Below are positions 1 through 10,200 of a stretch of 10,721 bases of DNA, in pieces. The stretch is from IMG/VR virus record IMGVR_UViG_3300044451_000174, positions 1 to 10,721 of that record; one strand, 5' to 3'. The position numbers and the translations under genes were made by a program. Numbering within the stretch: the first letter of the stretch is position 1; each line of letters begins with the position of its first letter. Origin of the DNA: a virus. Lineage: Duplodnaviria; Heunggongvirae; Uroviricota; Caudoviricetes. A model generated the notes under the pieces. The model saw only the letters and a program-made list of their open reading frames with translations. It ran no database searches and had not been told where the DNA came from.

Positions 1-1
1 C

Positions 2-139
2 CGGCGCGGGTGGCGGGTGTTCGGCGTCCAGAAGCCCGAACACACCCACACCGAAGCGACGATCTTCCTGAAGTGGGACAGCTTGCTGTCTCTGGTGTTG
101 CTGGCCGACGACCTCATCAAGCAGTACGAGGGTAAGTGA
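2..139 (+). CDS. 3' end of hypothetical protein (starts before the window)
   Basis: Frame 2 is open from the window edge (RRGWRVFGVQKPEHTHTEATIFLKWDSLL...QYEGK) to TGA 137-139, which overlaps the next ATG. Confidence 0.7.
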   Translation, partial: RRGWRVFGVQKPEHTHTEATIFLKWDSLLSLVLLADDLIKQYEGK

Positions 140-719: not shown

Positions 720-767
720 CGCAATTTCGGAGACTGCGAACGCGGCGGTGTGTAGTGGTGTCAACCC
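720..767 (+). promoter_or_regulatory. intergenic repeat element, copy 1 (CGCAATTT type, no long hairpin)
   Basis: cgcaatttcggagac-N16-tgtag with the same spacing as other copies; follows TAG directly; GGAG RBS and ATG 790 downstream. Confidence 0.8.
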
Positions 768-789
768 ATCACCCTTCGGAGACACGACG

Positions 790-1515
790 ATGGCCACCCA
801 ACACACCGCCGCTTCGCTGGCCTTCGACATCATCGGCCGCAACAAGGACAAGATTCAGGGCGTGAAGTACGCCCCGCGCGGCGACAAGGCCGAAGCGGTT
901 CGCCGGTTCATGGGCCGCGCCGTCACCGCCGAAATCTTCATCTCCGAGAAGCAGGCCGAGTTCCTCGGCAACCTGATCGGTGACGCGGGCGTCATCACCC
1001 ACGGCACCGGCGACCAGAAGTTCGGCGCGTTCGTCAAGGACATCTACAGCGAGTCGAAAGGCCGCACCTACTACCTGCTCACCTTCTGCGGCTTCGTCCC
1101 GCAACCCGAAGAAGCCGCCCCGATGACGCGGGACGAAGTCGCGGACATGCACGCCGACGCGGAGACGGCCCAACAGAAGGCCGACGATTTCGCCGCCTCG
1201 CTCATCCGCCGGGCGATGGAACAGAACCGCGTCCAGTTCGAGAAGCACGACGACGAGTTCGCGATGACGTGGTTGAGCAAGGCTCAGGCCGACGCCCTCA
1301 CCGCGAACCTCAAGGGCGCGGTCAAGCCGGACGGCTCGTTCATCACGCAGGCGTGCGGGTGCTTCTGCTACTGGGGCAAGAAGCGGACGATGAACGGGGC
1401 CATGCTGCTCTGCTGGATGGGCGAACCGGAAGACGCGCCGGTTGTCGAAGCCGCCCCGAAGGGTATCATCCCGGCCGGCAAGCGGATTCCCCTCGACCCG
1501 GCCATCCCCTTCTGA
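790..1515 (+). CDS. hypothetical protein (241 aa) ending in IPF
   Basis: ATG 790 follows a GGAG RBS; the track start at 559 would run through the upstream gene and the element. Confidence 0.85.
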   Translation: MATQHTAASLAFDIIGRNKDKIQGVKYAPRGDKAEAVRRFMGRAVTAEIFISEKQAEFLGNLIGDAGVITHGTGDQKFGAFVKDIYSESKGRTYYLLTFCGFVPQPEEAAPMTRDEVADMHADAETAQQKADDFAASLIRRAMEQNRVQFEKHDDEFAMTWLSKAQADALTANLKGAVKPDGSFITQACGCFCYWGKKRTMNGAMLLCWMGEPEDAPVVEAAPKGIIPAGKRIPLDPAIPF

Positions 1516-1521
1516 TCGAAA

Positions 1522-1563
1522 ACAAGACGCAATCTCGGAGACAACCGAGATTGCGTCTTGTGG
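1522..1563 (+). repeat. element copy 2 variant inside a perfect 17-bp inverted repeat
   Basis: acaagacgcaatctcgg (1522-1538), loop agacaa, ccgagattgcgtcttgt (1545-1561); contains cgcaatctcggagac-N16-tgtgg. Confidence 0.85.
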
Positions 1564-1578
1564 CACTAGGAGCTACCT

Positions 1579-1816
1579 ATGTCACCCGAACTGCTCGAAA
1601 ACGGCGGCATCAGAATCACCCTGCGGGCGCACGTCGTCTGCGGCCACTGTACAGAGTGTGCCGACTACAACCGCGAGGACACGCGAGAGCCGGGCATGTT
1701 CGGCCCGGAAGCTCAAGCCCACTTCGAGGAAGCCGGCTGGAGCTTCCTCGCTGGTCACAAACAAGGTGCGTTGCCCGACCTGCGTCAACATGAGAAGGAA
1801 GGCGAAGCGAAAATGA
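1579..1816 (+). pseudogene. small Zn-binding protein (CxxC...GW...CPxC), frameshifted as sequenced
   Basis: N-terminal CGHC is in the 1579 frame. VRCPTCVNMRRKAKRK-stop is in the +1 frame, and its TGA overlaps ATG 1813. Removing one A at 1759-1761 restores one ORF. Confidence 0.65.
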
Positions 1817-2202
1817 AACTGATCTACTTCAACCTGCACAAACGCGGCTGGTCCATCAAGAACCCCCAGACGGGGCTTGTGGAGAACAAGCAGGATCTCA
1901 AGACCTTCGTTCTCCTCAAGGGTGTAACGTTCAAGGTCAACGAGCGGGCGCGGCAGCGGGTGATTGCCGAGAAGCGGAAGAACGTTCACGCTTTCGCATG
2001 CGGCGAGATCGCCGGCTTCGAGCCGAGTCTGGAGTTCCTCGACGCAGTCACCCCGGTGACCTACAACCCGTACAAGGCGGGACACTTCGTCCGCAAAGAC
2101 GAGGGTCACGAAGGCGAAGCGGTTCACCAGTGCCGGCTGCTGATCATGGGTACGAAGGAGATCGATGGCAAGCGGGTTCCACAACTCTTCGCAGCACTGT
2201 GA
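1813..2202 (+). CDS. phage-type hypothetical protein (YFNLHK...RKNVHAF...YNPYK motifs)
   Basis: Internal ATG with a purine-rich upstream region and an ATGA overlap; the motif string is recalled from uncharacterised phage proteins. Confidence 0.8.
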   Translation: MKLIYFNLHKRGWSIKNPQTGLVENKQDLKTFVLLKGVTFKVNERARQRVIAEKRKNVHAFACGEIAGFEPSLEFLDAVTPVTYNPYKAGHFVRKDEGHEGEAVHQCRLLIMGTKEIDGKRVPQLFAAL

Positions 2203-2211
2203 GGATCTCGA

Positions 2212-2406
2212 ATGACGTGGGAAGAGATCAAACGCGACTGGGACGAAGGCGAGCGGCGAGACGCTCGTGAGGACTGGGAAATGCGGTTGGAGGCCAGTCG
2301 CGGGGACTGGTTTCCGAGGACCAAGCAAGAAGAGATCGAGTTCTGTTGGCGCTGGTACGACCACGCCGACAGGCCGATTGGCCAACGTTCGGGGAGAAGG
2401 CGATGA
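2212..2406 (+). CDS. hypothetical protein (64 aa, W/E/R-rich)
   Basis: ORF track; ATGA overlap with the next gene. Confidence 0.7.
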   Translation: MTWEEIKRDWDEGERRDAREDWEMRLEASRGDWFPRTKQEEIEFCWRWYDHADRPIGQRSGRRR

Positions 2407-2580
2407 AGGCGGCGTGTTGCAGCGTCTGCGGCCGGCTGACCGCAGAAGGCGATTACGGGAAGCTCCTGATCGCGGTGGCCGACCGTCACCGCAACAAGGC
2501 GGATCAGGAACCTGTTCGTCTCGGAGTGCAACGACGGCGCGGACCACGTTCTGACCATCGTGGAAGCCCCGCTGAAATGA
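2403..2580 (+). pseudogene. small Cys-containing protein, frameshifted as sequenced
   Basis: MKAACCSVCGR... from ATG 2403. The +1 frame reads RIRNLFVSECNDGADHVLTIVEAPLK and stops at TGA 2578-2580, next to element copy 3. The unshifted frame reads through the element. Confidence 0.55.
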
Positions 2581-2581
2581 G

Positions 2582-2628
2582 CGCAATTTCGGAGACTCGC
2601 GAACGACGTGCGTGTAGGCTTGTAACCC
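2582..2628 (+). promoter_or_regulatory. intergenic repeat element, copy 3 (CGCAATTT type)
   Basis: cgcaatttcggagac-N16-tgtag; TGA 1 nt upstream; GGAG RBS and ATG 2642 downstream. Confidence 0.8.
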
Positions 2629-2641
2629 ACTGGAGCTTAAC

Positions 2642-2815
2642 ATGCACGTCGTTCACGCCCCCAAGAGCAAAGAAATCAAGTTCACGGTTTCCACCCCCAA
2701 GAACGTGCCGACCGGCCACACGCAGCACCGCAGCGGCGGCGGCAAACACGGCGACCGCCGCACCAAACGCCTCAACACGCGGGCCGCGCGGTTCAACGCG
2801 GCCACGAAGGAGTAA
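2642..2815 (+). CDS. small basic hypothetical protein (57 aa), not in the ORF track
   Basis: GGAG RBS; MHVVHAPKSKEIKFTVSTPKNVPTGHTQHRSGGGKHGDRRTKRLNTRAARFNAATKE, TAA 2813-2815. Confidence 0.75.
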   Translation: MHVVHAPKSKEIKFTVSTPKNVPTGHTQHRSGGGKHGDRRTKRLNTRAARFNAATKE

Positions 2816-2816
2816 C

Positions 2817-3007
2817 ATGGACCCCATTACGAAGTCAAGGTGAACCGGGGCGACAACTACCGCCACAACTACGAACTGACCGGCTACACCGTGCCGAGCT
2901 TCGAGGAGTTGGAGAAGCGGATGAAGCTGAACCTCGAAAACGAGATTCGGCACGCGACCGCCGAAGTGAGCCGGGTAACGAAGCGAATCGACGCCGCGAA
3001 AGCTTGA
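2817..3007 (+). pseudogene. hypothetical protein, frameshifted as sequenced (or GTG start at 2840)
   Basis: The AAGGAG RBS and ATG 2817 give only MDPITKSR. One extra C in the CCCC run at 2822-2825 gives MDPHYEVKVNRG...KRIDAAKA ending at TGA 3005-3007. Confidence 0.6.
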
Positions 3008-3017
3008 CCCCAACCCC

Positions 3018-3043
3018 GACAACCCGGTTCGCGCCGGGTTGTC
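3018..3043. repeat. 10-bp hairpin sharing the outer stem of the element
   Basis: gacaacccgg-ttcgcg-ccgggttgtc; intergenic, upstream of a GGAG RBS. Confidence 0.8.
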
Positions 3044-3061
3044 CCCCAACCGGAGAGCGAC

Positions 3062-3349
3062 ATGCCCGCGAAGAAGATGGTAAAGCGTGCGAACGTGGAC
3101 TACAAGTTCTTGGTGATCGGGCCGTTCTGCTTCGGCAAGGCCGACACCGAGAAGCAAGCCATCGCCAACGCCAAGAAGAACGCGCCGAGCAGCGAGAAGT
3201 TCGGGAACTACAGCGTGTACCTCGTTCCCCCGGACACCGGCGTTGACGGCCTCGGCCGCATCATCTGGAAGGAAGGCACCGCGAACCCCATCATCCTCTA
3301 CAAGAAGATGAAGGACGGCAAAGAGCAACCCATTACCGAAAGCATGTGA
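3062..3349 (+). CDS. hypothetical protein (95 aa)
   Basis: ORF track; GGAG RBS; typical codon usage. Confidence 0.8.
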   Translation: MPAKKMVKRANVDYKFLVIGPFCFGKADTEKQAIANAKKNAPSSEKFGNYSVYLVPPDTGVDGLGRIIWKEGTANPIILYKKMKDGKEQPITESM

Positions 3350-3352
3350 CCC

Positions 3353-3595
3353 ATGTACGTCTGGATTCTCAAGTTGTGGAACAAAAACAAGATCGAATCG
3401 ACGGTCATTCACGGCGTATACGACAGCCTAGACGCCATCGTGATGTTCTTCACCTCTCGCGGTTACGATTTGGTTGTGGCGTCTGTGGTCAACGAAGACG
3501 TGCATTTTGAGTTCGCGGGCCACGGCGAAACGGCAAAGTACATCGCAGAGCGGCGCGGCTTGGCGACCGTCGCCAGTTGCCAAAAGAAAGACTGA
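3353..3595 (+). CDS. hypothetical protein (80 aa)
   Basis: ORF track; TGA abuts element copy 4. Confidence 0.7.
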   Translation: MYVWILKLWNKNKIESTVIHGVYDSLDAIVMFFTSRGYDLVVASVVNEDVHFEFAGHGETAKYIAERRGLATVASCQKKD

Positions 3596-3644
3596 CGCAA
3601 AACCGAAGACAACCCTATGCCGTGCGTGTAGGGTTGTCTCGCCC
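3596..3644 (+). promoter_or_regulatory. intergenic repeat element, copy 4 (CGCAAAAC type, hairpin)
   Basis: cgcaaaaccgaagacaaccctatgc-cgtgc-gtgtagggttgtct; 14-bp stem with two G-U pairs. Confidence 0.85.
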
Positions 3645-3666
3645 ATTTCGCACTCGGAGCAACGCG

Positions 3667-3951
3667 ATGCCGTTCGTCAAGATCAGCAAGGCCGAGGCCA
3701 AGAAGCGGTTCGCCAAGAACGAAGCCATCTTCCTCTGCCCCTGCAAGCTCGCCCCGGACGGCCCCTTCAGCAGCGCGGCCCTCGTCTACGGCAAGGAATA
3801 CTTGGAGAAGGCCGAGATGTACCGCACGCACGAAACGCTCTGGAAGGGGAGCATCGAGGCGACCGCGTGGGACTTGATGTTCAACAACTGGAAGCACTAC
3901 AACGCGAGCTACGAGTGCGGCTATTACCCCACCTACTACATCCAGAAGTGA
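3667..3951 (+). CDS. hypothetical protein (94 aa)
   Basis: ATG 3667 follows a GGAG RBS after element copy 4. Confidence 0.8.
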   Translation: MPFVKISKAEAKKRFAKNEAIFLCPCKLAPDGPFSSAALVYGKEYLEKAEMYRTHETLWKGSIEATAWDLMFNNWKHYNASYECGYYPTYYIQK

Positions 3952-3958
3952 GGACGAC

Positions 3959-4165
3959 ATGAAGGCCGGCGACTCTGTCCGCACGAAGAACATCATGTTC
4001 TTCGTTGAGGCGACCAACCCCGACACGGGCGCGGAGATCGAAACGCAGTTCCCCCGGTGGCACCGGCTACAAGTGCTGTCGGTCAACCAAGCGGAACGCG
4101 AGGTCACGGTTTCGCTCCCCGATGGGTTCGAGGCGGTGTTGAGCTTCGATGACGTGGAAGTGTGA
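3959..4165 (+). CDS. hypothetical protein (68 aa), possibly a small SH3-like beta barrel
   Basis: GAGG RBS; the KAGDSV start and alternating beta-strand pattern suggest the fold (inference only). Confidence 0.75.
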   Translation: MKAGDSVRTKNIMFFVEATNPDTGAEIETQFPRWHRLQVLSVNQAEREVTVSLPDGFEAVLSFDDVEV

Positions 4166-4188
4166 CGCAACAACCTCAAGGTGCCACG

Positions 4189-4404
4189 ATGTTCACGAAG
4201 TGCTTGGTCAACCTGCAAGACGTGTGTGAGCCGGGCGGCAGCGGCCGACTCTGGTACTGGGCGTTCGAGGACAAGGACGGCAAGGTGTTTCACCGCCCGC
4301 TCACCCTCGGCGCGGTGTTGGATCTCGCGGCCGACCTGATGCCGCAAGAGTGGGCGATGCTGCAACGGGCGATGAAGGAACCCGGAACTTGGGTCGGGAA
4401 CTGA
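4189..4404 (+). CDS. hypothetical protein (71 aa; alternative GTG start at 4162)
   Basis: AAGGTG RBS before ATG 4189; stop is 2 nt before element copy 5. Confidence 0.7.
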   Translation: MFTKCLVNLQDVCEPGGSGRLWYWAFEDKDGKVFHRPLTLGAVLDLAADLMPQEWAMLQRAMKEPGTWVGN

Positions 4405-4406
4405 GG

Positions 4407-4454
4407 CGCAAAACCGGAGACAACTCTACACCGCCCTTGTAGGGTTGTCAGCCC
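4407..4454 (+). promoter_or_regulatory. intergenic repeat element, copy 5 (hairpin)
   Basis: cgcaaaaccggagacaactctaca-ccgccct-tgtagggttgtc; 12-bp stem with one U-G pair. Confidence 0.85.
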
Positions 4455-4477
4455 ATCACCCGCTACTGGAGAACGCG

Positions 4478-4684
4478 ATGAAGATTCGCACGCTCATCAA
4501 GGCCGGCGACCGCGTCACCATCAAGAACCGCTTCGGCCAAGAGAAGACGGGCAAGGCCGTGATGCCGAGCGGCGAAGGTGGGTGGGTGCTGAACATGGGT
4601 GGCGCTCACGGCACGCCCGGCCTCGCCACCGACGACAACGTGACCAAGATCAAAGGCAAACCCTTCAACAAGGAACAATCGTGA
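4478..4684 (+). CDS. hypothetical protein (68 aa), possibly SH3/KOW-like
   Basis: GGAG RBS before ATG 4478; IKAGDRVTI motif. Confidence 0.8.
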   Translation: MKIRTLIKAGDRVTIKNRFGQEKTGKAVMPSGEGGWVLNMGGAHGTPGLATDDNVTKIKGKPFNKEQS

Positions 4685-4791
4685 CCAAGTGCAACATCGG
4701 CATTACCGTACTCGTACTCACACGGCAAGTCACCGACCTGAAGCGGCGGAAGGCCGAAGCGGACGAACTCCGCAAACAACGCGGTTGGTGA
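4681..4791 (+). CDS. small hypothetical protein (36 aa)
   Basis: GTGA overlap preceded by AAGGA; stop is 2 nt before element copy 6. Confidence 0.55.
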   Translation: MTKCNIGITVLVLTRQVTDLKRRKAEADELRKQRGW

Positions 4792-4793
4792 TG

Positions 4794-4841
4794 CGCAAAA
4801 CCGGAGACAACCCTACACCGCCCTTGTAGGGTTGTCTCCCC
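4794..4841 (+). promoter_or_regulatory. intergenic repeat element, copy 6 (perfect 15-bp hairpin)
   Basis: ggagacaaccctaca (4803-4817), loop ccgccct, tgtagggttgtctcc (4825-4839). Confidence 0.9.
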
Positions 4842-4860
4842 CAACCATTCGAGGTGCAGA

Positions 4861-5037
4861 ATGACCACGACGGACATCGTTAACGCCGCCGCGAACGCGA
4901 TGGCGAACCTGCAACTCTTCGGCAACCTCGGCCCGGCCGTTCGACTGGAAATGTGCCACATCCTGAAGTGCAACCCGGCCGACCTCGACGCCGCGCTGAA
5001 CGACGAAGACACGATGCTCGCGTGCCTCGGTTACTGA
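4861..5037 (+). CDS. hypothetical protein (58 aa), not in the ORF track
   Basis: GAGGT RBS; MTTTDIVNAAANAMANLQLFGNLGPAVRLEMCHILKCNPADLDAALNDEDTMLACLGY. Confidence 0.75.
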   Translation: MTTTDIVNAAANAMANLQLFGNLGPAVRLEMCHILKCNPADLDAALNDEDTMLACLGY

Positions 5038-5062
5038 ACCCCCACCTCGAACCCACAGGACT

Positions 5063-5290
5063 ATGGAAAACGTCATCACCTCCGGTCCCGCCGCAACGCC
5101 CGGCGACGGCATCTATGGGCAAGCTCGCGGGCTGCGGCTCACCACCGACGAGCAGGCGATGCTCGCGGACATGAAACAACACTACGGCGAGAAGAACGCC
5201 AGTCAGGTTCTCCGCATCGCCCTGCGGCACCTGTACGACTCGGTCACCGCGCCCTCGCCCGTTGCCGCACCCGAACCCGCAATTTCCTGA
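5063..5290 (+). CDS. putative ribbon-helix-helix (CopG/Arc-like) DNA-binding protein
   Basis: RGLRL strand, helix TDEQAMLADMKQHYG, then helix NASQVLRIALRHLY fit the RHH pattern; AGGA RBS. Confidence 0.6.
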   Translation: MENVITSGPAATPGDGIYGQARGLRLTTDEQAMLADMKQHYGEKNASQVLRIALRHLYDSVTAPSPVAAPEPAIS

Positions 5291-5291
5291 A

Positions 5292-5340
5292 CGCAAAACC
5301 GGAGACAACCCTACGCCGAGTGTGTAGGGTTGTCTCGCCC
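5292..5340 (+). promoter_or_regulatory. intergenic repeat element, copy 7 (hairpin)
   Basis: cgcaaaaccggagacaaccctacgc-cgagt-gtgtagggttgtctc; 15-bp stem with one G-U pair. Confidence 0.9.
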
Positions 5341-5360
5341 ATCCCGAACTGGAGCTTGCG

Positions 5361-5840
5361 ATGCCGACGACCTCCGAAACGATCTTCAACACGGTGTTCT
5401 ACGCGACCGAACACACCGAACGCCCGCAGGCCGTTCTCGACTACTTCAAGGCCAACGACGGCAAGCGGCTGACCGCGCCCTACCTCAAGAAGATGTCGGA
5501 AACGCTCGGCTTCGAGGTCACGACGCACGCCCGCGCCAGCATGACCTACGTCAGCTTCCAGAACGGCGACCAGAAAACGGACATGATCATCGCCTACGCC
5601 CTCAAGAACATCGTCGTTGACGCGAAGTTCTTCGAGGAGTACAACCCGGCTCACCTCGACGCGGCCGTCAAGCGGAACATCGCCCGCGCCGCCGTCCTCA
5701 GCAACCAAGCCTCCATTGACGAACTCGCGGCTGCCATCGAAGGGTTCAAGGCTGCCGAAGCTCGCCTGAAGGCCGCGTTCGAGCCGTTCGGTCACGACCG
5801 CTACACCATCGAACGGAACTTTGACCTCAACAAAAACTGA
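5361..5840 (+). CDS. hypothetical protein (159 aa)
   Basis: ORF track; GGAG RBS; TGA abuts element copy 8. Confidence 0.85.
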   Translation: MPTTSETIFNTVFYATEHTERPQAVLDYFKANDGKRLTAPYLKKMSETLGFEVTTHARASMTYVSFQNGDQKTDMIIAYALKNIVVDAKFFEEYNPAHLDAAVKRNIARAAVLSNQASIDELAAAIEGFKAAEARLKAAFEPFGHDRYTIERNFDLNKN

Positions 5841-5888
5841 CGCAAAACCGGAGACAACCCTAAACCGAGCGTTTAGGGTTGTCTCCCC
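5841..5888 (+). promoter_or_regulatory. intergenic repeat element, copy 8 (perfect 16-bp hairpin)
   Basis: ggagacaaccctaaac (5850-5865), loop cgagc, gtttagggttgtctcc (5871-5886). Confidence 0.9.
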
Positions 5889-5908
5889 CACCCGAATTGG
5901 AGGTTGTC

Positions 5909-6091
5909 ATGCTGATGGCAGAACAGCTCGCGCTGGCTTGGATGGACGGCGAGTACAGCCTGATGGCGAACTTGCTGCGTGAGTTGGACACGCCGCGAGC
6001 GTTCCGCATGGGCGTGCGTGTCTACACGATGATCGAAGCCCAGTGGGGCAACGGCGCGGACTTCCTCAAGTGGCTCGAAGAGAACATCTAG
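5909..6091 (+). CDS. hypothetical protein (60 aa)
   Basis: GGAGG RBS before ATG 5909; TAG stop. Confidence 0.7.
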   Translation: MLMAEQLALAWMDGEYSLMANLLRELDTPRAFRMGVRVYTMIEAQWGNGADFLKWLEENI

Positions 6092-6139
6092 AACTTCGAG
6101 GTCGTCAAGGCCGGCAACGAAGCTGTGGCCGATCACGAC

Positions 6140-6266
6140 AATCGCATAGGATCGCTTCCAAGCCCGGATCGGCGACCCATCGCCCTTCCGGGCTTCTTTC
6201 GTTTCAACGCCCTTCTAGGGCTGTGCAAGGAGATCGCAATGGACATCAACGAAGCTAAGGCGAACG
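6140..6266 (+). repeat. 127-bp exact direct repeat, copy A
   Basis: Identical base for base to 7274-7400 (offset 1134). Confidence 0.97.
6160..6205 (+). terminator. probable intrinsic terminator (in repeat copy A)
   Basis: aagcccgga/tccgggctt stem with inner ggcga/tcgcc, followed by T-rich ctttcgtttc. Confidence 0.6.
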
Positions 6267-6361
6267 CGGGCGAAGCGGTCGATGAGGCGATCAACGACAC
6301 GCTCGGCAGCGGCGTGATGAAAGTCGAAGTGGTCAAAGCCGAAGTCACCGACAGCAAGTGA
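6239..6361 (+). CDS. small hypothetical protein (40 aa, starts MDINEAKAN)
   Basis: AAGGAG RBS at 6227-6232; ATG 6239. Confidence 0.65.
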   Translation: MDINEAKANAGEAVDEAINDTLGSGVMKVEVVKAEVTDSK

Positions 6362-6418
6362 AACAACAACCGCGCAGGAGTAGCTGCGAGCTACTTCCGC
6401 GCGAGGAGATAGCCCCCG

Positions 6419-6448
6419 ATGCGAGAATACCCGACAGGCTTCATATAG
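6419..6448 (+). CDS. candidate mini-ORF MREYPTGFI
   Basis: AGGAG at 6404-6408; shares the Y-x-x-G-F-I-stop ending with 6527-6550. Confidence 0.35.
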   Translation: MREYPTGFI

Positions 6449-6526
6449 CCCCGGCCCATGCTGACGTGACCAGCACGACCTGAGCCGCAGTCGCTAAACC
6501 GGCTCGCCACCCGCACGGAGCAGAAC

Positions 6527-6550
6527 ATGTACACTTCCGGCTTCATATGA
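6527..6550 (+). CDS. candidate mini-ORF MYTSGFI
   Basis: GGAG at 6517-6520, 6 nt before the ATG; same ending as 6419-6448. Confidence 0.35.
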   Translation: MYTSGFI

Positions 6551-6616
6551 CGCAGCGGCTTCAGCGTAGCCGTGGACACGCCGAACGGGGTGCCTGACCA
6601 CGGAACCAACCTTGCG

Positions 6617-6644
6617 TTGTGCGGCGGATTCACCGCACAATTTT
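6617..6644 (+). terminator. possible intrinsic terminator
   Basis: ttgtgcgg-cggattca-ccgcacaa followed by tttt. Confidence 0.5.
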
Positions 6645-6671
6645 GGAGACAAGAAGACGAACGACGTGTAG
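6636..6671 (+). promoter_or_regulatory. intergenic repeat element, copy 9 (degenerate)
   Basis: cacaattttggagac-N16-tgtag; spacing identical to copies 1-8. Confidence 0.7.
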
Positions 6672-6754
6672 AGGCGGGGTCCGGCAGCAGGGTCTGTCGG
6701 GGTAACGGCAGGTACGCCCGCCGCCCCGCCTCTACTTCTCAACCGAAGGTGATC

Positions 6755-7273
6755 ATGGTCAGCCTCAACGACATCGTCAGCATCCCGGCCAGCAGCCGCT
6801 ACGCGGTCGTCATCGGCTTCATCGAACACGGCCGGCGCAAGCTCGCCAAACTCCACTACATCGACCCGAAGACGGGCGACAAGATGGAATGCCCGGACCA
6901 TCGGTGCAACGGCCAGAACGACGCCTGCCCGATCCACGGCCGCAACGTCGATACCTGCGAACTCGAACCGTGGCGTGAGACGGACATCAACTACTACGCC
7001 GCCACCGGGATGCTGACGGCCGAACTCGCTCGGAAGGCGCTCGCCCCGGAGATCGAAATCAGCCGGGTGAACACCTACAAGTACCGGGTTCGCCTCGCGA
7101 AGCACGGCGAGAACATCCGCATCGCCACCGTGACCAGCGAGAACAACAACGACCTCTGGCAAGACGCCATCGCCCTGACCAACGACACCGACCGCATGAC
7201 GACCAAGCTGACCGACCCGGACAACGGCGACTACCAGAACTTCCTCGCCCTGTTCCAACCCGCTACCGTCTGA
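6755..7273 (+). CDS. hypothetical protein (172 aa) with a Cys/His cluster (CPDHRC...CPIH...C)
   Basis: GAAGGT RBS before ATG 6755; sequence upstream of this in the same frame lacks the typical codon usage. Confidence 0.8.
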   Translation: MVSLNDIVSIPASSRYAVVIGFIEHGRRKLAKLHYIDPKTGDKMECPDHRCNGQNDACPIHGRNVDTCELEPWRETDINYYAATGMLTAELARKALAPEIEISRVNTYKYRVRLAKHGENIRIATVTSENNNDLWQDAIALTNDTDRMTTKLTDPDNGDYQNFLALFQPATV

Positions 7274-7400
7274 AATCGCATAGGATCGCTTCCAAGCCCG
7301 GATCGGCGACCCATCGCCCTTCCGGGCTTCTTTCGTTTCAACGCCCTTCTAGGGCTGTGCAAGGAGATCGCAATGGACATCAACGAAGCTAAGGCGAACG
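7274..7400 (+). repeat. 127-bp exact direct repeat, copy B
   Basis: Identical to 6140-6266; begins right after TGA 7271-7273. Confidence 0.97.
7294..7339 (+). terminator. probable intrinsic terminator (in repeat copy B)
   Basis: Same hairpin and T tract as 6160-6205, here about 20 nt after a stop codon. Confidence 0.65.
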
Positions 7401-7714
7401 GGAAGACCAACCTTCCCCACCTCGCCGCACGAACCGCCGACCTAGCGCAGCGACTGCCCAAGCTCAAAGCCTCGCAGCTAGACGAAGTGGAACGCATGTT
7501 CGACACGCTTGTGCTGGCTGACAGCAACGCCGAGGATCTCGCTACCGAACTGCCCGGTCCTTTCGGCATCGAGGACCACGACACACGCTACCTACACTCG
7601 CTCAGGGATCAGAAGGACAGCGGCCGACCACTCACCAAGCAGCAGCTACTATCACTCAAGGTCGTACTACAGAGCGAGCGATACATGCGCCAGTTAGCAT
7701 TGCTGATGCAATGA
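7373..7714 (+). CDS. hypothetical protein (113 aa, starts MDINEAKAN)
   Basis: ORF track; AAGGAG RBS supplied by repeat copy B. Confidence 0.75.
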   Translation: MDINEAKANGKTNLPHLAARTADLAQRLPKLKASQLDEVERMFDTLVLADSNAEDLATELPGPFGIEDHDTRYLHSLRDQKDSGRPLTKQQLLSLKVVLQSERYMRQLALLMQ

Positions 7715-7727
7715 CAACAGTTGGATA

Positions 7728-7763
7728 GTATCCACCACACACTACTATGTGTGTGGTGGATAC
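7728..7763. repeat. perfect 15-6-15 palindrome
   Basis: gtatccaccacacac-tactat-gtgtgtggtggatac. Confidence 0.95.
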
Positions 7764-8044
7764 AAAGGTACAACGCTATGAACAGGACGCTGTAACATTT
7801 TAATGAATGTCGAAATTCAAAAGCAAAAAGTCTGACGATGGTTCCCGTTCGGGGGCGGTCCCCATACCTCTACGGCCTTGTTTTCTTATTAGCGTGTCAC
7901 AAAAAAATCCCGCCCAGGTTTTTCGGCCCCCGGCGTCAGGGTCGAACCTTTTGGAAACAAGAGCCGCGAAAAAATCCCGCCGACCAGCATAACGCAATTC
8001 TCCAGGGTTTTCACGATAGAATATCTGAACTCTGGGGGCGTTAA

Positions 8045-8655: not shown

Positions 8656-9096
8656 ATGAACGATTCTGAGATCTTGGCGTTCGTCCGGCGGGTGTTGGCG
8701 GTTTACGACGGTTTCGACGGCCCGGACGGGAGCGAGTTGTGGTGGCGGGTGGACGGCGAGTACGCGCCGGTGACGATGTTCGCGATGTGCAACGACCTCT
8801 TCTATTGGGGGAGTGCGGATCTGGAGAAGATTACCCCTGAGAACGTGGCGGAACTGGAGCGAGCGGTAGAGGACTGCAAGAAGGTTGACGACGTGGTGGG
8901 TGTGTGTGACGCGACGAGTCTGTTCTGCTGCCGGGTGAGGAAGATGAGGCCGCAGGGTGCGGCGTATCCGAAAGACCCGAAGTTCTGGCCGTTGTTCGAT
9001 GAGTGCGGGCCGGAACGCGAGGTGGGGTTGGGGAATCCGAGGAAGCATCCGAAGGAAGAAAATGAACCAGTGGTTACAGAAGAAGTGGTTGCGTGA
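8656..9096 (+). CDS. phage-type hypothetical protein (CNDLFxWG...RVRKMRPQGAAY motifs)
   Basis: GAGG RBS before ATG 8656; motifs recalled from uncharacterised phage proteins. Confidence 0.85.
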   Translation: MNDSEILAFVRRVLAVYDGFDGPDGSELWWRVDGEYAPVTMFAMCNDLFYWGSADLEKITPENVAELERAVEDCKKVDDVVGVCDATSLFCCRVRKMRPQGAAYPKDPKFWPLFDECGPEREVGLGNPRKHPKEENEPVVTEEVVA

Positions 9097-9489: not shown

Positions 9490-10200
9490 TTACCATTGCC
9501 CGATTACTTCGAGCATTTTGACGGTCACTTCGATTTTCTTGGCGCGGCTTGCTCCCGAAGGTAACTCGGTAGTCAACGACGGTATGCCTTCTTTGAGCAG
9601 TTGATCTTCGAGCGTGTCGAGAGAGGTCTGTTTGCAGGAGACGACTCCGTTTCTGCTCCCGCTGCAACGGTTCTTGAAGGGTCCGTCATTCAATTTGCCC
9701 TTGTGGACCGGGAACTCCTTCTGTATTTCCCCGACCAGTTTTTTCGCCAGCGGCAGGAGGTCACACTTTTTGCCGCTGGACTGGCAGTAGATGAAGGCGG
9801 TTTTGTAATCGACCTCGTGCAAACTGACGACGAAATCGGGTTCGTGTTTCAAAACACGCTTCCAGACCGCTTCGGATTCTTTGGTTTGCTTTTTGGGGTG
9901 GAAGTGCCGGTTAATGTCGCGTCGGTCGGCGTTGGTCCGAACCCCTTTGTCGAACCCGTGTGCGTTCGCGCAGGGTATGAAGATCAGGTGGTTTTTGGGA
10001 TCGGGCTTGCCCCGTGCGTAGGCCACGACCCCACGCGGACCCGACTCCTCGTCGCCGTGAACGCCGCCGACGATTAGTATTTTCTTGCGGCCGGCGGGGT
10101 TGATCTGGAACTCGTGAATGCCGCCGATGTCTTCCGCACCCGCATCCCCCAGGTCGCTGATCAGGTCTTGGTAGTTGAAGAATTCTCGGAAACCGTTCAT
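9490..10200 (-). CDS. M14-family zinc metallopeptidase (succinylglutamate desuccinylase/aspartoacylase or MpaA-like)
   Basis: GGVHGDE (HxxE zinc ligands), NxxG, DINR, SLHE (third ligand) and TTELP (catalytic Glu) occur in canonical order. Confidence 0.85.
   Translation of the reverse strand: MNGFREFFNYQDLISDLGDAGAEDIGGIHEFQINPAGRKKILIVGGVHGDEESGPRGVVAYARGKPDPKNHLIFIPCANAHGFDKGVRTNADRRDINRHFHPKKQTKESEAVWKRVLKHEPDFVVSLHEVDYKTAFIYCQSSGKKCDLLPLAKKLVGEIQKEFPVHKGKLNDGPFKNRCSGSRNGVVSCKQTSLDTLEDQLLKEGIPSLTTELPSGASRAKKIEVTVKMLEVIGQW

Follow-up and report, generated by a model that had tools for sequence, protein, structure and literature searches.

Promoter elements with an attached stem-loop have been described between small genes of T4-type phages, namely the promoter-early stem-loops (PeSLs) and promoter-middle stem-loops (PmSLs) of RB49/phi1, T4/PST and KVP40/nt-1 (PMC2839356, PMC4122927), and a role of PeSLs as crossover points for cassette shuffling has been proposed. 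In halovirus HF2, repeated intergenic sequences likewise proved to be promoters, but HF2 infects archaea and its promoter motifs are AT-rich ones of archaeal type, and the abstract does not describe an overlapping hairpin (PMC8707807). Integron attC arrays are also built of small same-strand gene cassettes with imperfect palindromes between them. Phage N4 has three early promoters, whose small hairpin is fixed in form and which are read by a giant virion RNA polymerase.

The locus described here lies in a stretch of 10,721 nt (the window) that forms the edge of a genome fragment from an uncultured huge lake-water phage. The analogy with PeSLs drawn in the initial annotation holds, in that the repeated element has a promoter anatomy, often with a hairpin. 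The likeness extends to recurrence in a variable region among small genes without known function, to a lineage-specific consensus with degraded "half" elements, and to a two-box promoter of fixed spacing set between the upstream stop codon and the ribosome site and start codon. However, the boxes here are GAGAC and GTGTAG instead of the sigma-70-like TTGACA-N17-TATAAT, and whereas the PeSL stem-loop, which acts as a terminator, is located just upstream of the promoter, the hairpins here overlap the spacer, the -10 box or the upstream box and lack a U-run. The host phylum is also a different one (probably Planctomycetota), the phage is far larger, and indels flanked by two elements, which together with minicircles are the defining evolutionary evidence for PeSLs, are absent among the five resolved here. 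Judging from sequence, the repeats are most likely promoters, many of them with an overlapping hairpin; a promoter plus hairpin between small genes is already known from T4-type phages, and the box sequence is new.

Nine copies of the element, all on the + strand, start at window positions 720, 1528, 2582, 3596, 4407, 4794, 5292, 5841 and 6636, as initially annotated. The loose pattern CRCAA-N3-YGRAGAC (nine forward and no reverse matches, and none in the remainder of the 125,807-bp contig) and an nhmmer profile of the nine copies agree on these positions; the array copies score E = 7e-10 to 1e-5, and the profile scan of the whole 125.8-kb contig that had been proposed reveals no tenth copy, the best match outside the array having E = 0.14. 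Several other details of that annotation were borne out: the upstream stop codon is located 0-2 nt before CGCAA in seven of the nine copies (12 nt in copy 2, no stop at copy 9), a GGAG-type ribosome site and then a start codon follow every copy, and the modules hold 1-4 small ORFs nearly all without a known family, the sole match in family scans being a mycobacteriophage L5 gp82-like domain. The array does not begin at 720, which reflects the contig edge: contigs of the same phage (100% identical) extend it by at least 14.5 kb upstream, and the full array comprises at least 23 full copies and one split copy over about 21 kb. The contig itself covers 25% of the genome. The upstream box is present in all nine window copies and TAG follows GAGAC by 18 nt in eight, but the copies are heterogeneous, five of them (3596-5841) having one common hairpin, copy 2 another, and copies 1, 3 and 9 none in the core:

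720 to 764, + strand: copy 1, with upstream box CGCAATTTCG, GAGAC, a 15-nt spacer and GTGTAG; no hairpin (fold z = +0.4)
1522 to 1572, + strand: copy 2, with a perfect 17-bp hairpin at 1522-1561 that has the upstream box as its left arm (-37.7 kcal/mol, z = -7.7; inverted repeat I20); -10 box degenerate (TGTGG)
2582 to 2626, + strand: copy 3, two boxes without a hairpin (z = +0.4)
3596 to 3643, + strand: copy 4, two boxes and a 13-bp hairpin in which the spacer is paired to the -10 box (z = -2.8)
4407 to 4451, + strand: copy 5, two boxes and a 12-bp hairpin (z = -2.4)
4794 to 4842, + strand: copy 6, two boxes and a 15-bp hairpin with a loop identical to that of copy 5 (z = -4.3)
5292 to 5339, + strand: copy 7, two boxes and a 15-bp hairpin (z = -3.8)
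5841 to 5889, + strand: copy 8, two boxes (TTTAG variant) and a 16-bp hairpin, inverted repeat I24 (z = -6.1)
6636 to 6733, + strand: copy 9, CACAATTTTGGAGAC and further on GTGTAG; the -10 box opens a long downstream hairpin at about 6667-6733, which stands ahead of a 172-aa gene (region 6631-6745, -48.5 kcal/mol)

The pair of boxes is constant in the element; the palindrome is not. The upstream box, about 10 nt long, abutting the stop codon of the preceding gene and ending in a -35-like GAGAC, is followed after 15 nt (±1) by a -10-like box, GTGTAG(GGT), and then by a leader of about 25-30 nt with the GGAG ribosome site and the start codon. The geometry GAGAC-N18-TAG is fixed with or without a hairpin (eight of nine copies), and the spacers of copies 1, 3 and 9 are unrelated. 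A spacer of 15 nt with variants of 13-16 nt is in keeping with sigma-type promoters, and in each of the five lineages measured the median distance from the -10 box to the start codon is 31.5-37 nt. GAGAC-N15-GTGTAG occurs in every window copy except copy 2 (eight of nine), and relatives have at least 120 further copies of it; the same two boxes are found in six further related lineages, about once per gene and always on the gene strand (19 in 16 kb of L025, 33 in 20.7 kb of L027, about 29 in L029, 14 in 8.5 kb of L032, and also in L184 and, as a GACAC variant, L031). Copy 1 is the putative promoter that most likely drives the 241-aa gene, and its ortholog precedes the same gene in L025 and L184. 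On metagenome-assembled (MAG) contigs of Planctomycetota the motif faces genes of either strand, including one back-to-back divergent pair, and within host-like MAGs it is confined to mobile-element contigs. Upstream boxes are specific to the lineage rather than to the position and change between lineages in all copies together, which points to a lineage-specific reader. Neither box matches a known consensus. Canonical sigma-70 promoters show no excess in the window (four found versus 2.4 expected), and the sigma-70 consensus scan gave no + strand call on any of the nine elements, which are thus the only candidate start signals. On the contig, which is 25% complete, no gene was found for a sigma factor or for an RNA polymerase of the single-subunit or multisubunit type.

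We therefore consider it likely that the elements are two-box sigma-type promoters of new sequence, often combined with a hairpin, that serve small early genes, and there is a similarly good chance that this promoter class is restricted to the present group of huge phages and to some mobile elements binned with Planctomycetota genomes. Such an anatomy ahead of the genes would provide nearly each gene or small gene group of this early-type array with its own start signal. The basis is a combination that is kept in seven lineages: a pair of boxes at nearly constant spacing, a constant distance from there to the ribosome site and start codon, and orientation with the genes.

The hairpin is optional, six of the nine window copies having one, and it occupies different positions in different copies and lineages; in each lineage, roughly one copy in two lacks a significant hairpin. 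Nevertheless, 60-nt element regions fold at -20.1 kcal/mol versus -14.1 kcal/mol after shuffling (mean z = -2.2, n = 128). Covariation in 24 copies (90.3% of cells pair, five pairs have changed on both sides, and none of 500 shuffles reaches the score) indicates that the hairpin is real and under selection, being maintained by compensatory changes, and at the copy 2 junction it is kept in three lineages (also L184 and L025) by arms that differ yet remain complementary. Since the hairpins have no U-run, unlike the ordinary terminators of the same region (6160-6205; D3, I5), efficient intrinsic termination by them is improbable. In about half of the copies the spacer or the leader has become complementary to the -10 box or to the upstream box, and the resulting hairpin of 12-17 bp stands immediately behind the stop codon of the upstream gene. 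This hairpin might work on read-through RNA of the upstream module, by attenuation, as a site of processing or as a 3' end that protects the message, and might insulate neighbouring modules as the stem-loop of T4-type PeSLs does. The -10 box of copy 2 and of its ortholog in L184 is either degenerate or in overlap with the ribosome site, and copy 2 may thus act solely as a hairpin. One intergenic site has the hairpin and neither box:

3018 to 3043, + strand: hairpin-only intergenic site with arms GACAACCCGG and CCGGGTTGTC like those of the element (-20.9 kcal/mol)

Selection on the hairpins, and the exact fit of the elements between one stop codon and the ribosome site of the following gene, would also be expected if the boxes acted in RNA, such that a nuclease or RNA-binding protein cuts a long polycistronic transcript into single-gene messages or stabilises these, comparable to the RNase III sites of the T7 early region. 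CTTCGG-type loops, which are present in hairpin-only sites between further genes of the array, suggest RNA structure as well, and wobble pairs in the aligned set modestly favour the + strand (30 G.U versus 13 A.C), whereas fold-based counts over all copies do not (209/2157 versus 227/2182). However, the box spacing is kept whether the boxes are paired, unpaired or on opposite arms, two short boxes with variable spacing are what a polymerase holoenzyme typically recognises in DNA, the divergent back-to-back copies in MAGs fit promoters, and no upstream master promoter is seen in 21 kb. This reading appears quite improbable.

Even less credit is given to an N4-like mechanism, in which a phage-encoded polymerase would read the promoter in extruded or single-stranded hairpin form. 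N4 resembles our case in having a DNA-hairpin-associated promoter at the early genome end, a box (-10 or upstream) always forms one hairpin arm, the boxes match no host-type consensus, and the restriction of the motif to mobile-element contigs in host-like MAGs is in line with a reader of this kind. On the other hand, a significant hairpin is missing from about half of the copies of every lineage, the stems are long (12-17 bp) and variable in register instead of a small fixed hairpin, and neither type of polymerase gene was found on the contig, which covers 25% of the genome.

The initial annotation had also ascribed to the core the geometry of a tyrosine recombinase site and suggested a search for such an enzyme elsewhere on the contig. 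Five copies do have inverted arms of 12-16 bp around a 5-7-nt loop, like a core-type site, and one motif-carrying MAG contig (L090) encodes a tyrosine recombinase. Yet neither a tyrosine (PF00589) nor a serine (PF00239) recombinase was matched in the 125.8 kb of this incomplete genome, and integrase families are absent among the Pfam families listed for the relatives' arrays. The palindrome is missing in three of the nine copies, its register differs between copies and lineages, and its arms covary instead of staying conserved; arms that change in sequence and stay complementary behave as a nucleic-acid structure and not as a recombinase-binding site. Moreover, RYYYAAC / GTTRRRY-type cores are absent (the arms read AGACAAC / GTTGTCT), the cassettes bear their own promoter boxes, unlike integron cassettes (upstream box in nine of nine copies, both boxes in eight), and resolved breakpoints are situated in ORFs or at ORF borders and not in the loop. 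An integron-like gene-capture array with a site-specific tyrosine recombinase site is thus highly improbable. As to specific candidates, an attC array with IntI is largely refuted by the lack of PF00589 in the 125.8 kb and in the gene lists of the related arrays, by the lack of core sites and by the promoter-bearing cassettes, and a dif, lox or FRT-type core site does not agree with covarying arms, loops of 5-10 nt and breakpoints outside the spacer.

It is also conceivable that the elements are promoters and at the same time the main crossover points, at which homologous recombination deletes, inserts or swaps modules of an element with its genes, perhaps via minicircles. Relatives differ widely in gene content and order, including relocations of single genes (families 27, 18, 6, 3 and 21). 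Some of the differences are bounded by elements. The three modules at 3596-5291, between copies 4 and 7, are missing in L025, which has at this place a single element ahead of the ortholog of the 159-aa gene, but this case is ambiguous because the left-hand gene is replaced too; at 6300-6622, L025 has a module with an element on either side, in place of which our phage has a promoterless ORF. Concerted evolution of the copies is suggested by copy 7, which shares 51 of 53 nt with an element copy 7.6 kb upstream, and by hairpin-type copies that are closer to their paralogs (0.74-0.86) than to positional orthologs (0.53-0.56, three of four cases), although functional constraint on the hairpin could by itself account for the similarity of paralogs. 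Elements also occur as halves, split copies and remnants, as reported for degraded PeSLs (PMC4122927).

However, gene order is broken at 183 of 207 junctions with an element (88%) versus 148 of 180 without (82%), p = 0.11 in pairwise comparisons that are not independent. Five indels could be resolved in the three closest lineages, and not one of them has an element at either end of the same event: in two, an element is lost and both breakpoints fall within ORFs, while the other three are gains or losses of promoterless ORFs. The expectation that breakpoints fall at element boundaries was thus not borne out, and the outcome comes close to the one, breakpoints unrelated to the elements, that the initial annotation had itself named as refuting it. 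Gain, loss and reordering of cassettes through the elements had been proposed as well, but the near-identical strains show no cassette variation: the five contigs of this phage are 99.99-100% identical across the array and, apart from one mismatch (L020), differ solely by a 67-bp deletion outside any element. We found no evidence for the elements as recombination sites, and a main role in crossover is unlikely. Of the self-contained expression and recombination unit initially envisaged, the expression half is retained and the recombination half is not, breaks not being enriched at elements and a recombinase not found on the 125.8-kb contig. The array does gain and lose genes, but most of this would have arisen by illegitimate events located at gene borders or within them, with the elements serving at most as occasional substrates for ordinary homologous exchange; occasional exchange of this kind between copies is possible. 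There is a small chance that the boxes are read by a lineage-specific transcription factor or polymerase encoded by the phage or mobile element and that the elements double as PeSL-like crossover points; if true, self-expressing modules would move among huge phages and other Planctomycetota-associated mobile elements.

The genes served by the elements, a probable element remnant and the remaining features are as follows:

within 790 to 6361, + strand: small same-strand genes served by elements (gene calls, ORF list and family scans), at 790-1515, 1579-2202 (L5 gp82-like), 2212-2406, 2642-2815, 2840-3007, 3062-3349, 3353-3595, 3667-3951, 3959-4165, 4189-4404, 4478-4684, 4861-5037, 5063-5290, 5361-5840, 5909-6091 and 6239-6361
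2403 to 2580, + strand: chimeric frame-broken remnant from a 369-bp deletion relative to L184, which removed one element and parts of two flanking genes (L184 3192-3302 and 3672-3988 abut at window position ~2508-2510)
4163 to 4188, + strand: probable element remnant read from the sequence, a stop codon with CGCAA (4166) directly after it and the remainder absent, in a 23-nt intergenic gap
6140 to 6266, + strand: first copy of an exact 127-bp repeat (direct repeat D3) with a terminator with T-run, a ribosome site and the first 9 codons; the second copy is 7274-7400, and L025 has the downstream copy only
6755 to 7714, + strand: 6755-7273 and 7373-7714, the two genes with which the block ends (families 9 and 10), kept in L025, L027 and L029
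7728 to 7763, no strand assigned: perfect 15-6-15 palindrome at the end of the GC-rich array, read from the sequence

All nine copies of the element proposed in the initial annotation were confirmed, every one on the plus strand.

Element copies in the window (start, strand)
720, plus, copy 1
1528, plus, copy 2
2582, plus, copy 3
3596, plus, copy 4
4407, plus, copy 5
4794, plus, copy 6
5292, plus, copy 7
5841, plus, copy 8
6636, plus, copy 9

When the whole 125,807-bp contig was scanned with a profile of these copies, they scored between E = 7e-10 and 1e-5 and the next best site outside the array E = 0.14; a loose pattern gave nine forward and no reverse matches, with none elsewhere in the contig. 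A stop codon lies 0-2 nt before the element in seven of the nine copies, a ribosome site and a start codon follow downstream, and the modules hold one to four small ORFs each, all as first described; a single module ORF has a Pfam/PHROG match (L5 gp82-like domain). An upstream box ending in GAGAC is common to all nine copies, and TAG follows 18 nt after GAGAC in 8/9 irrespective of the spacer sequence, the -10 box of copy 2 being degenerate. A strong hairpin was detected in six copies (z = -2.4 to -7.7 versus shuffles), in one register common to five copies and in another in copy 2, and copies 1, 3 and 9 have no core hairpin. The nine copies are not uniform in these respects.

The parent IMG/VR record, of which the window forms the first 10.7 kb, is 25% complete (CheckV) and has no terminal repeats. 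G+C content is 57-66% from position 1 to about 7,700, where the small genes are all on the plus strand, and drops beyond that point, where gene directions are mixed. The end of the GC-rich array carries a perfect 15-6-15 palindrome without a T-run (7728-7763), unrelated in sequence to the elements, and the lower-GC stretch contains the sole minus-strand gene of the window (9490-10200), coding for a 236-aa protein with a succinylglutamate desuccinylase/aspartoacylase-type (zinc hydrolase) domain. Sixteen metagenome runs from lakes or fresh water, dated 2018-2025, contain the window stretch, and none of those listed is an RNA run. Megablast of the whole window against phage GenBank records gave no match.

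By searching a large protein collection for homologs of the 241-aa protein encoded at 790-1515 and examining the carrier contigs, we found contigs that encode the identical protein, share 99.99-100% identity with the window where the two overlap, and reach further upstream. Once joined, the array spans about 21 kb and contains 23 or more full copies plus a split one, and the extending contig itself ends within the array. Five contigs of the same phage differ only by one mismatch and one 67-bp deletion unrelated to the elements. The 67 bp (9189-9255 of L021, one of these contigs, spanning the window start and including window 1-44) lie within an 87-aa gene and are absent from the Logan contig L022, where the frame is shifted; the IMG/VR contig begins inside this segment and another contig, L023, just after it, and the segment may be polymorphic and interrupt assemblies. 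In the split element, the 21 nt at L021 8844-8864, within the end of a 115-aa ORF, match the first half of copy 1 perfectly; the corresponding -10 box, GCGTGTAGTGG, lies 73 nt later (8938-8951), past the stop codon. At the equivalent position the related lineage L025 carries the element intact.

The same two boxes were identified in six further lineages, whose neighboring proteins are 46-81% identical to those of our phage and which were obtained via protein database and contig look-ups plus one metagenome scan.

Two-box consensus in related lineages
L025: CGCAsnTnGAGAGAC ... GTATAG or GTACAG
L184: upstream box as in L025; downstream GTGTAG
L027 (586-kb NCBI contig, JAWVGZ010000010.1): TGATTTTCCGAGAC-N14-16-CGTGTAG
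L029 and L032: ACRCGGTTTCCGAGAC-N15-CGTGTAG
L031: GGTTTCCGACAC ... CGTGTAG

These relatives carry 14-33 copies per 8-21 kb, on the gene strand throughout, with a spacer of 15 nt (variants 13-16 nt), a median distance of 31.5-37 nt from the end of the -10 box to the start codon in every lineage measured, and a preceding stop codon a fixed few nucleotides ahead of the upstream box. The upstream box differs among lineages and is identical at all positions within one lineage. An IMG/VR search seeded with three window proteins and an AAA alignment returned no relatives; the window-type pattern gave 19 single matches there, none confirmed by the profile and thus considered chance matches, and the pattern of the relatives gave 14 single matches.

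Taken together, the two short boxes, the slightly elastic spacing, the fixed leader and the gene orientation would describe a promoter class. Judged from the sequences, the element is a real, well-conserved regulatory repeat with a putative new promoter motif in a layout of known kind, which gives a clade of huge, as yet uncultured freshwater phages a concrete, searchable candidate promoter motif and could allow their early (probably host-takeover) gene sets to be delimited by sequence alone. A consensus scan of the window showed no excess of sigma-70-type promoters and called no element on the plus strand, Rfam has no family for the window or L021, and our literature search found neither a description of this motif nor a published Planctomycetes promoter consensus. 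On the 125,807-bp contig, which represents a quarter of the genome, neither sigma region 2 nor a polymerase domain of the single-subunit or multisubunit type was found; the lone match in the search for sigma, polymerase and recombinase domains was a weak, sub-threshold sigma region 4-like hit at about 64.8 kb.

Among one-genome-per-species contigs, all loci with at least two motif copies were located in Planctomycetota MAGs (Gemmatales or Schlesneria), and four of these contigs (L090, L055, L048 and L070) each carry several copies. In L090, a 16.9-kb Schlesneria MAG contig, genes for an integrase and for an ArdC-type anti-restriction and metallopeptidase protein neighbor the motif, as does the gene for a RuvB-like ATPase, which is a distant relative of the conserved ATPase of the phage array. 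Because the motif clusters are confined to few Planctomycetota MAG contigs, they suggest that the host is a planctomycete and that mobile elements use this promoter class, with binning as weak evidence, and they may help to trace the host phylum and other mobile elements related to the phage. That the motif is a host housekeeping promoter was rejected for now: under both strict and relaxed patterns it occurs on only one or two contigs in each of five Planctomycetota MAGs, with background levels elsewhere. Few promoters in any host genome match the consensus perfectly, however, and a host sigma factor may still be the reader.

Folding of the 60-nt element regions (n = 128 copies) gave -20.1 kcal/mol versus -14.1 for shuffles, and 34%-71% of the copies per lineage fall below z = -2. 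When 24 copies of the hairpin type, taken from our phage and L025, were aligned, 90.3% of the cells paired, five pairs had changed on both sides, and the covariation score (0.26 versus 0.145) was matched by none of 500 shuffles; pairing was lost when the partner was shifted by 1-3 columns. The register varies, in that the -10 box forms the right arm in our phage and L025 and the left arm in L029 and L032, and the upstream box may itself be the left arm, e.g., in copy 2. Both L184 and L025 have the copy-2 hairpin at the corresponding gene junction, with arms that differ in sequence yet are perfectly complementary. Selection evidently acts on pairing and not on arm sequence, which argues against a protein-binding palindrome, and a palindromic operator for a dimeric repressor was rejected since the arms covary. 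Wobble pairs in the aligned set favor the plus strand (30 versus 13), whereas fold-based counts show no such asymmetry, so that the structure may form in RNA or in DNA. Block ends carry ordinary terminators with U-runs, whereas the element hairpins have no U-run; with modest confidence, we infer that the element hairpin would act on read-through RNA as an attenuator, a processing site or a 3'-end protection. Hairpin-only sites with CTTCGG-type loops also occur between other genes. A minus-strand terminator called by a scan (a hairpin followed by GGTTTTGCG) was rejected, as the T-run is missing in L025, the closest relative.

The initial annotation had also proposed that the elements are recombination sites at which gene cassettes are gained, lost and reordered. 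No tyrosine or serine recombinase was found in the 125,807 bp. In five lineages the gene families share a backbone on which genes have often been gained or lost and sometimes relocated, and gene-content breakpoints did not concentrate at elements: junctions with an element were broken in 183/207 cases and those without in 148/180 (Fisher p = 0.11, the pairwise comparisons not being independent). Among the three closest lineages five indels could be resolved, none with both ends in elements. Two are segments of L184 missing from our phage: 369 bp made up of an element and portions of the two genes beside it, leaving a frame-broken ORF (2403-2580), and 652 bp that take in one gene, an element and two thirds of the gene after it, leaving a GTG-start 55-aa ORF (2840-3007). 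Two others are extra promoterless genes in our phage, one of 64 aa (2212-2406) with an element at neither border and one of 72 aa immediately ahead of an element; the fifth is a promoterless 92-aa gene lost from our phage, which four relatives retain immediately ahead of an element. Window 3596-5291 and L025 6300-6622 could be element-to-element events, and are ambiguous because adjacent genes were replaced too. In four runs that contain part of the window, the Logan contigs were all short, of low depth and from the same strain; their loose ends are paralogous element copies, and the single weak joint (4631 to 5680, with 24 nt on its shorter side) lies away from element borders. Recombination at the elements is therefore not supported by the indels, the breakpoints or the contig's gene content, and the integron-like or recombinase reading is not supported either, with membership among integron attC sites and core-type tyrosine recombinase sites failing on several defining features. 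Since the copies evolve in concert, occasional homologous exchange or gene conversion between them is plausible.

Among described systems the closest is the promoter-early stem-loop (PeSL) found in T4-type phages: a stem-loop immediately precedes a strong sigma-70-like promoter, the unit lies between small genes of hyperplastic regions, and inter-PeSL recombination and minicircle formation were demonstrated experimentally (PMC2839356, PMC4122927). Our element appears alike as an expression module of promoter boxes and hairpin, but it has neither the sigma-70 nor the recombination feature (none of the five resolved indels is bounded by two elements), and its hairpin overlaps the promoter. The arrangement of one promoter plus hairpin per small gene known from T4-type coliphages thus recurs in a distant phage group with unrelated sequence and different geometry; no new kind of mechanism is opened, the exceptional look having come from the recombinase reading.

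Several further features were observed. An exact 127-bp direct repeat (6140-6266 and 7274-7400) contains an ordinary terminator with T-run, a ribosome site and the first nine codons (MDINEAKAN). The pair encloses 1,134 bp including element copy 9; the upstream copy is a recent duplication, because L025 has the downstream copy only, and has produced a chimeric 40-aa ORF (6239-6361). A gap of 149-170 nt after the conserved AAA ATPase gene (L021 5562-5710; L031 7085-7254) ends in a tRNA-like T-arm (GGTTCGA(C/T)TCC); ARAGORN called no tRNA or tmRNA in this gap and no tRNA in five loci. A gene-free leader of 150-195 nt after one promoter copy, GGGGCGTGAGGAACGCCCC ... AACGGATAG, is conserved in five lineages and is a candidate small RNA or structured leader, with no Rfam match in L021.

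Gene-free leader
L021: 8935-9086 (125-276 nt left of the window start)
L025: 8977-9149
L027: 8680-8874
L029: 9473-9551
L184: 705-876

Distant relatives share a conserved 17-nt word, TTCATAGCGTTGTACCT, which always lies in long gaps beside ordinary terminators at block borders and forms an inverted pair in L031; it might act as a second regulatory site or as an origin-like one.

17-nt word
Window: 7766-7782 (minus-strand sense)
L027: about 740 and about 12,190
L031: about 3,720 and about 11,560
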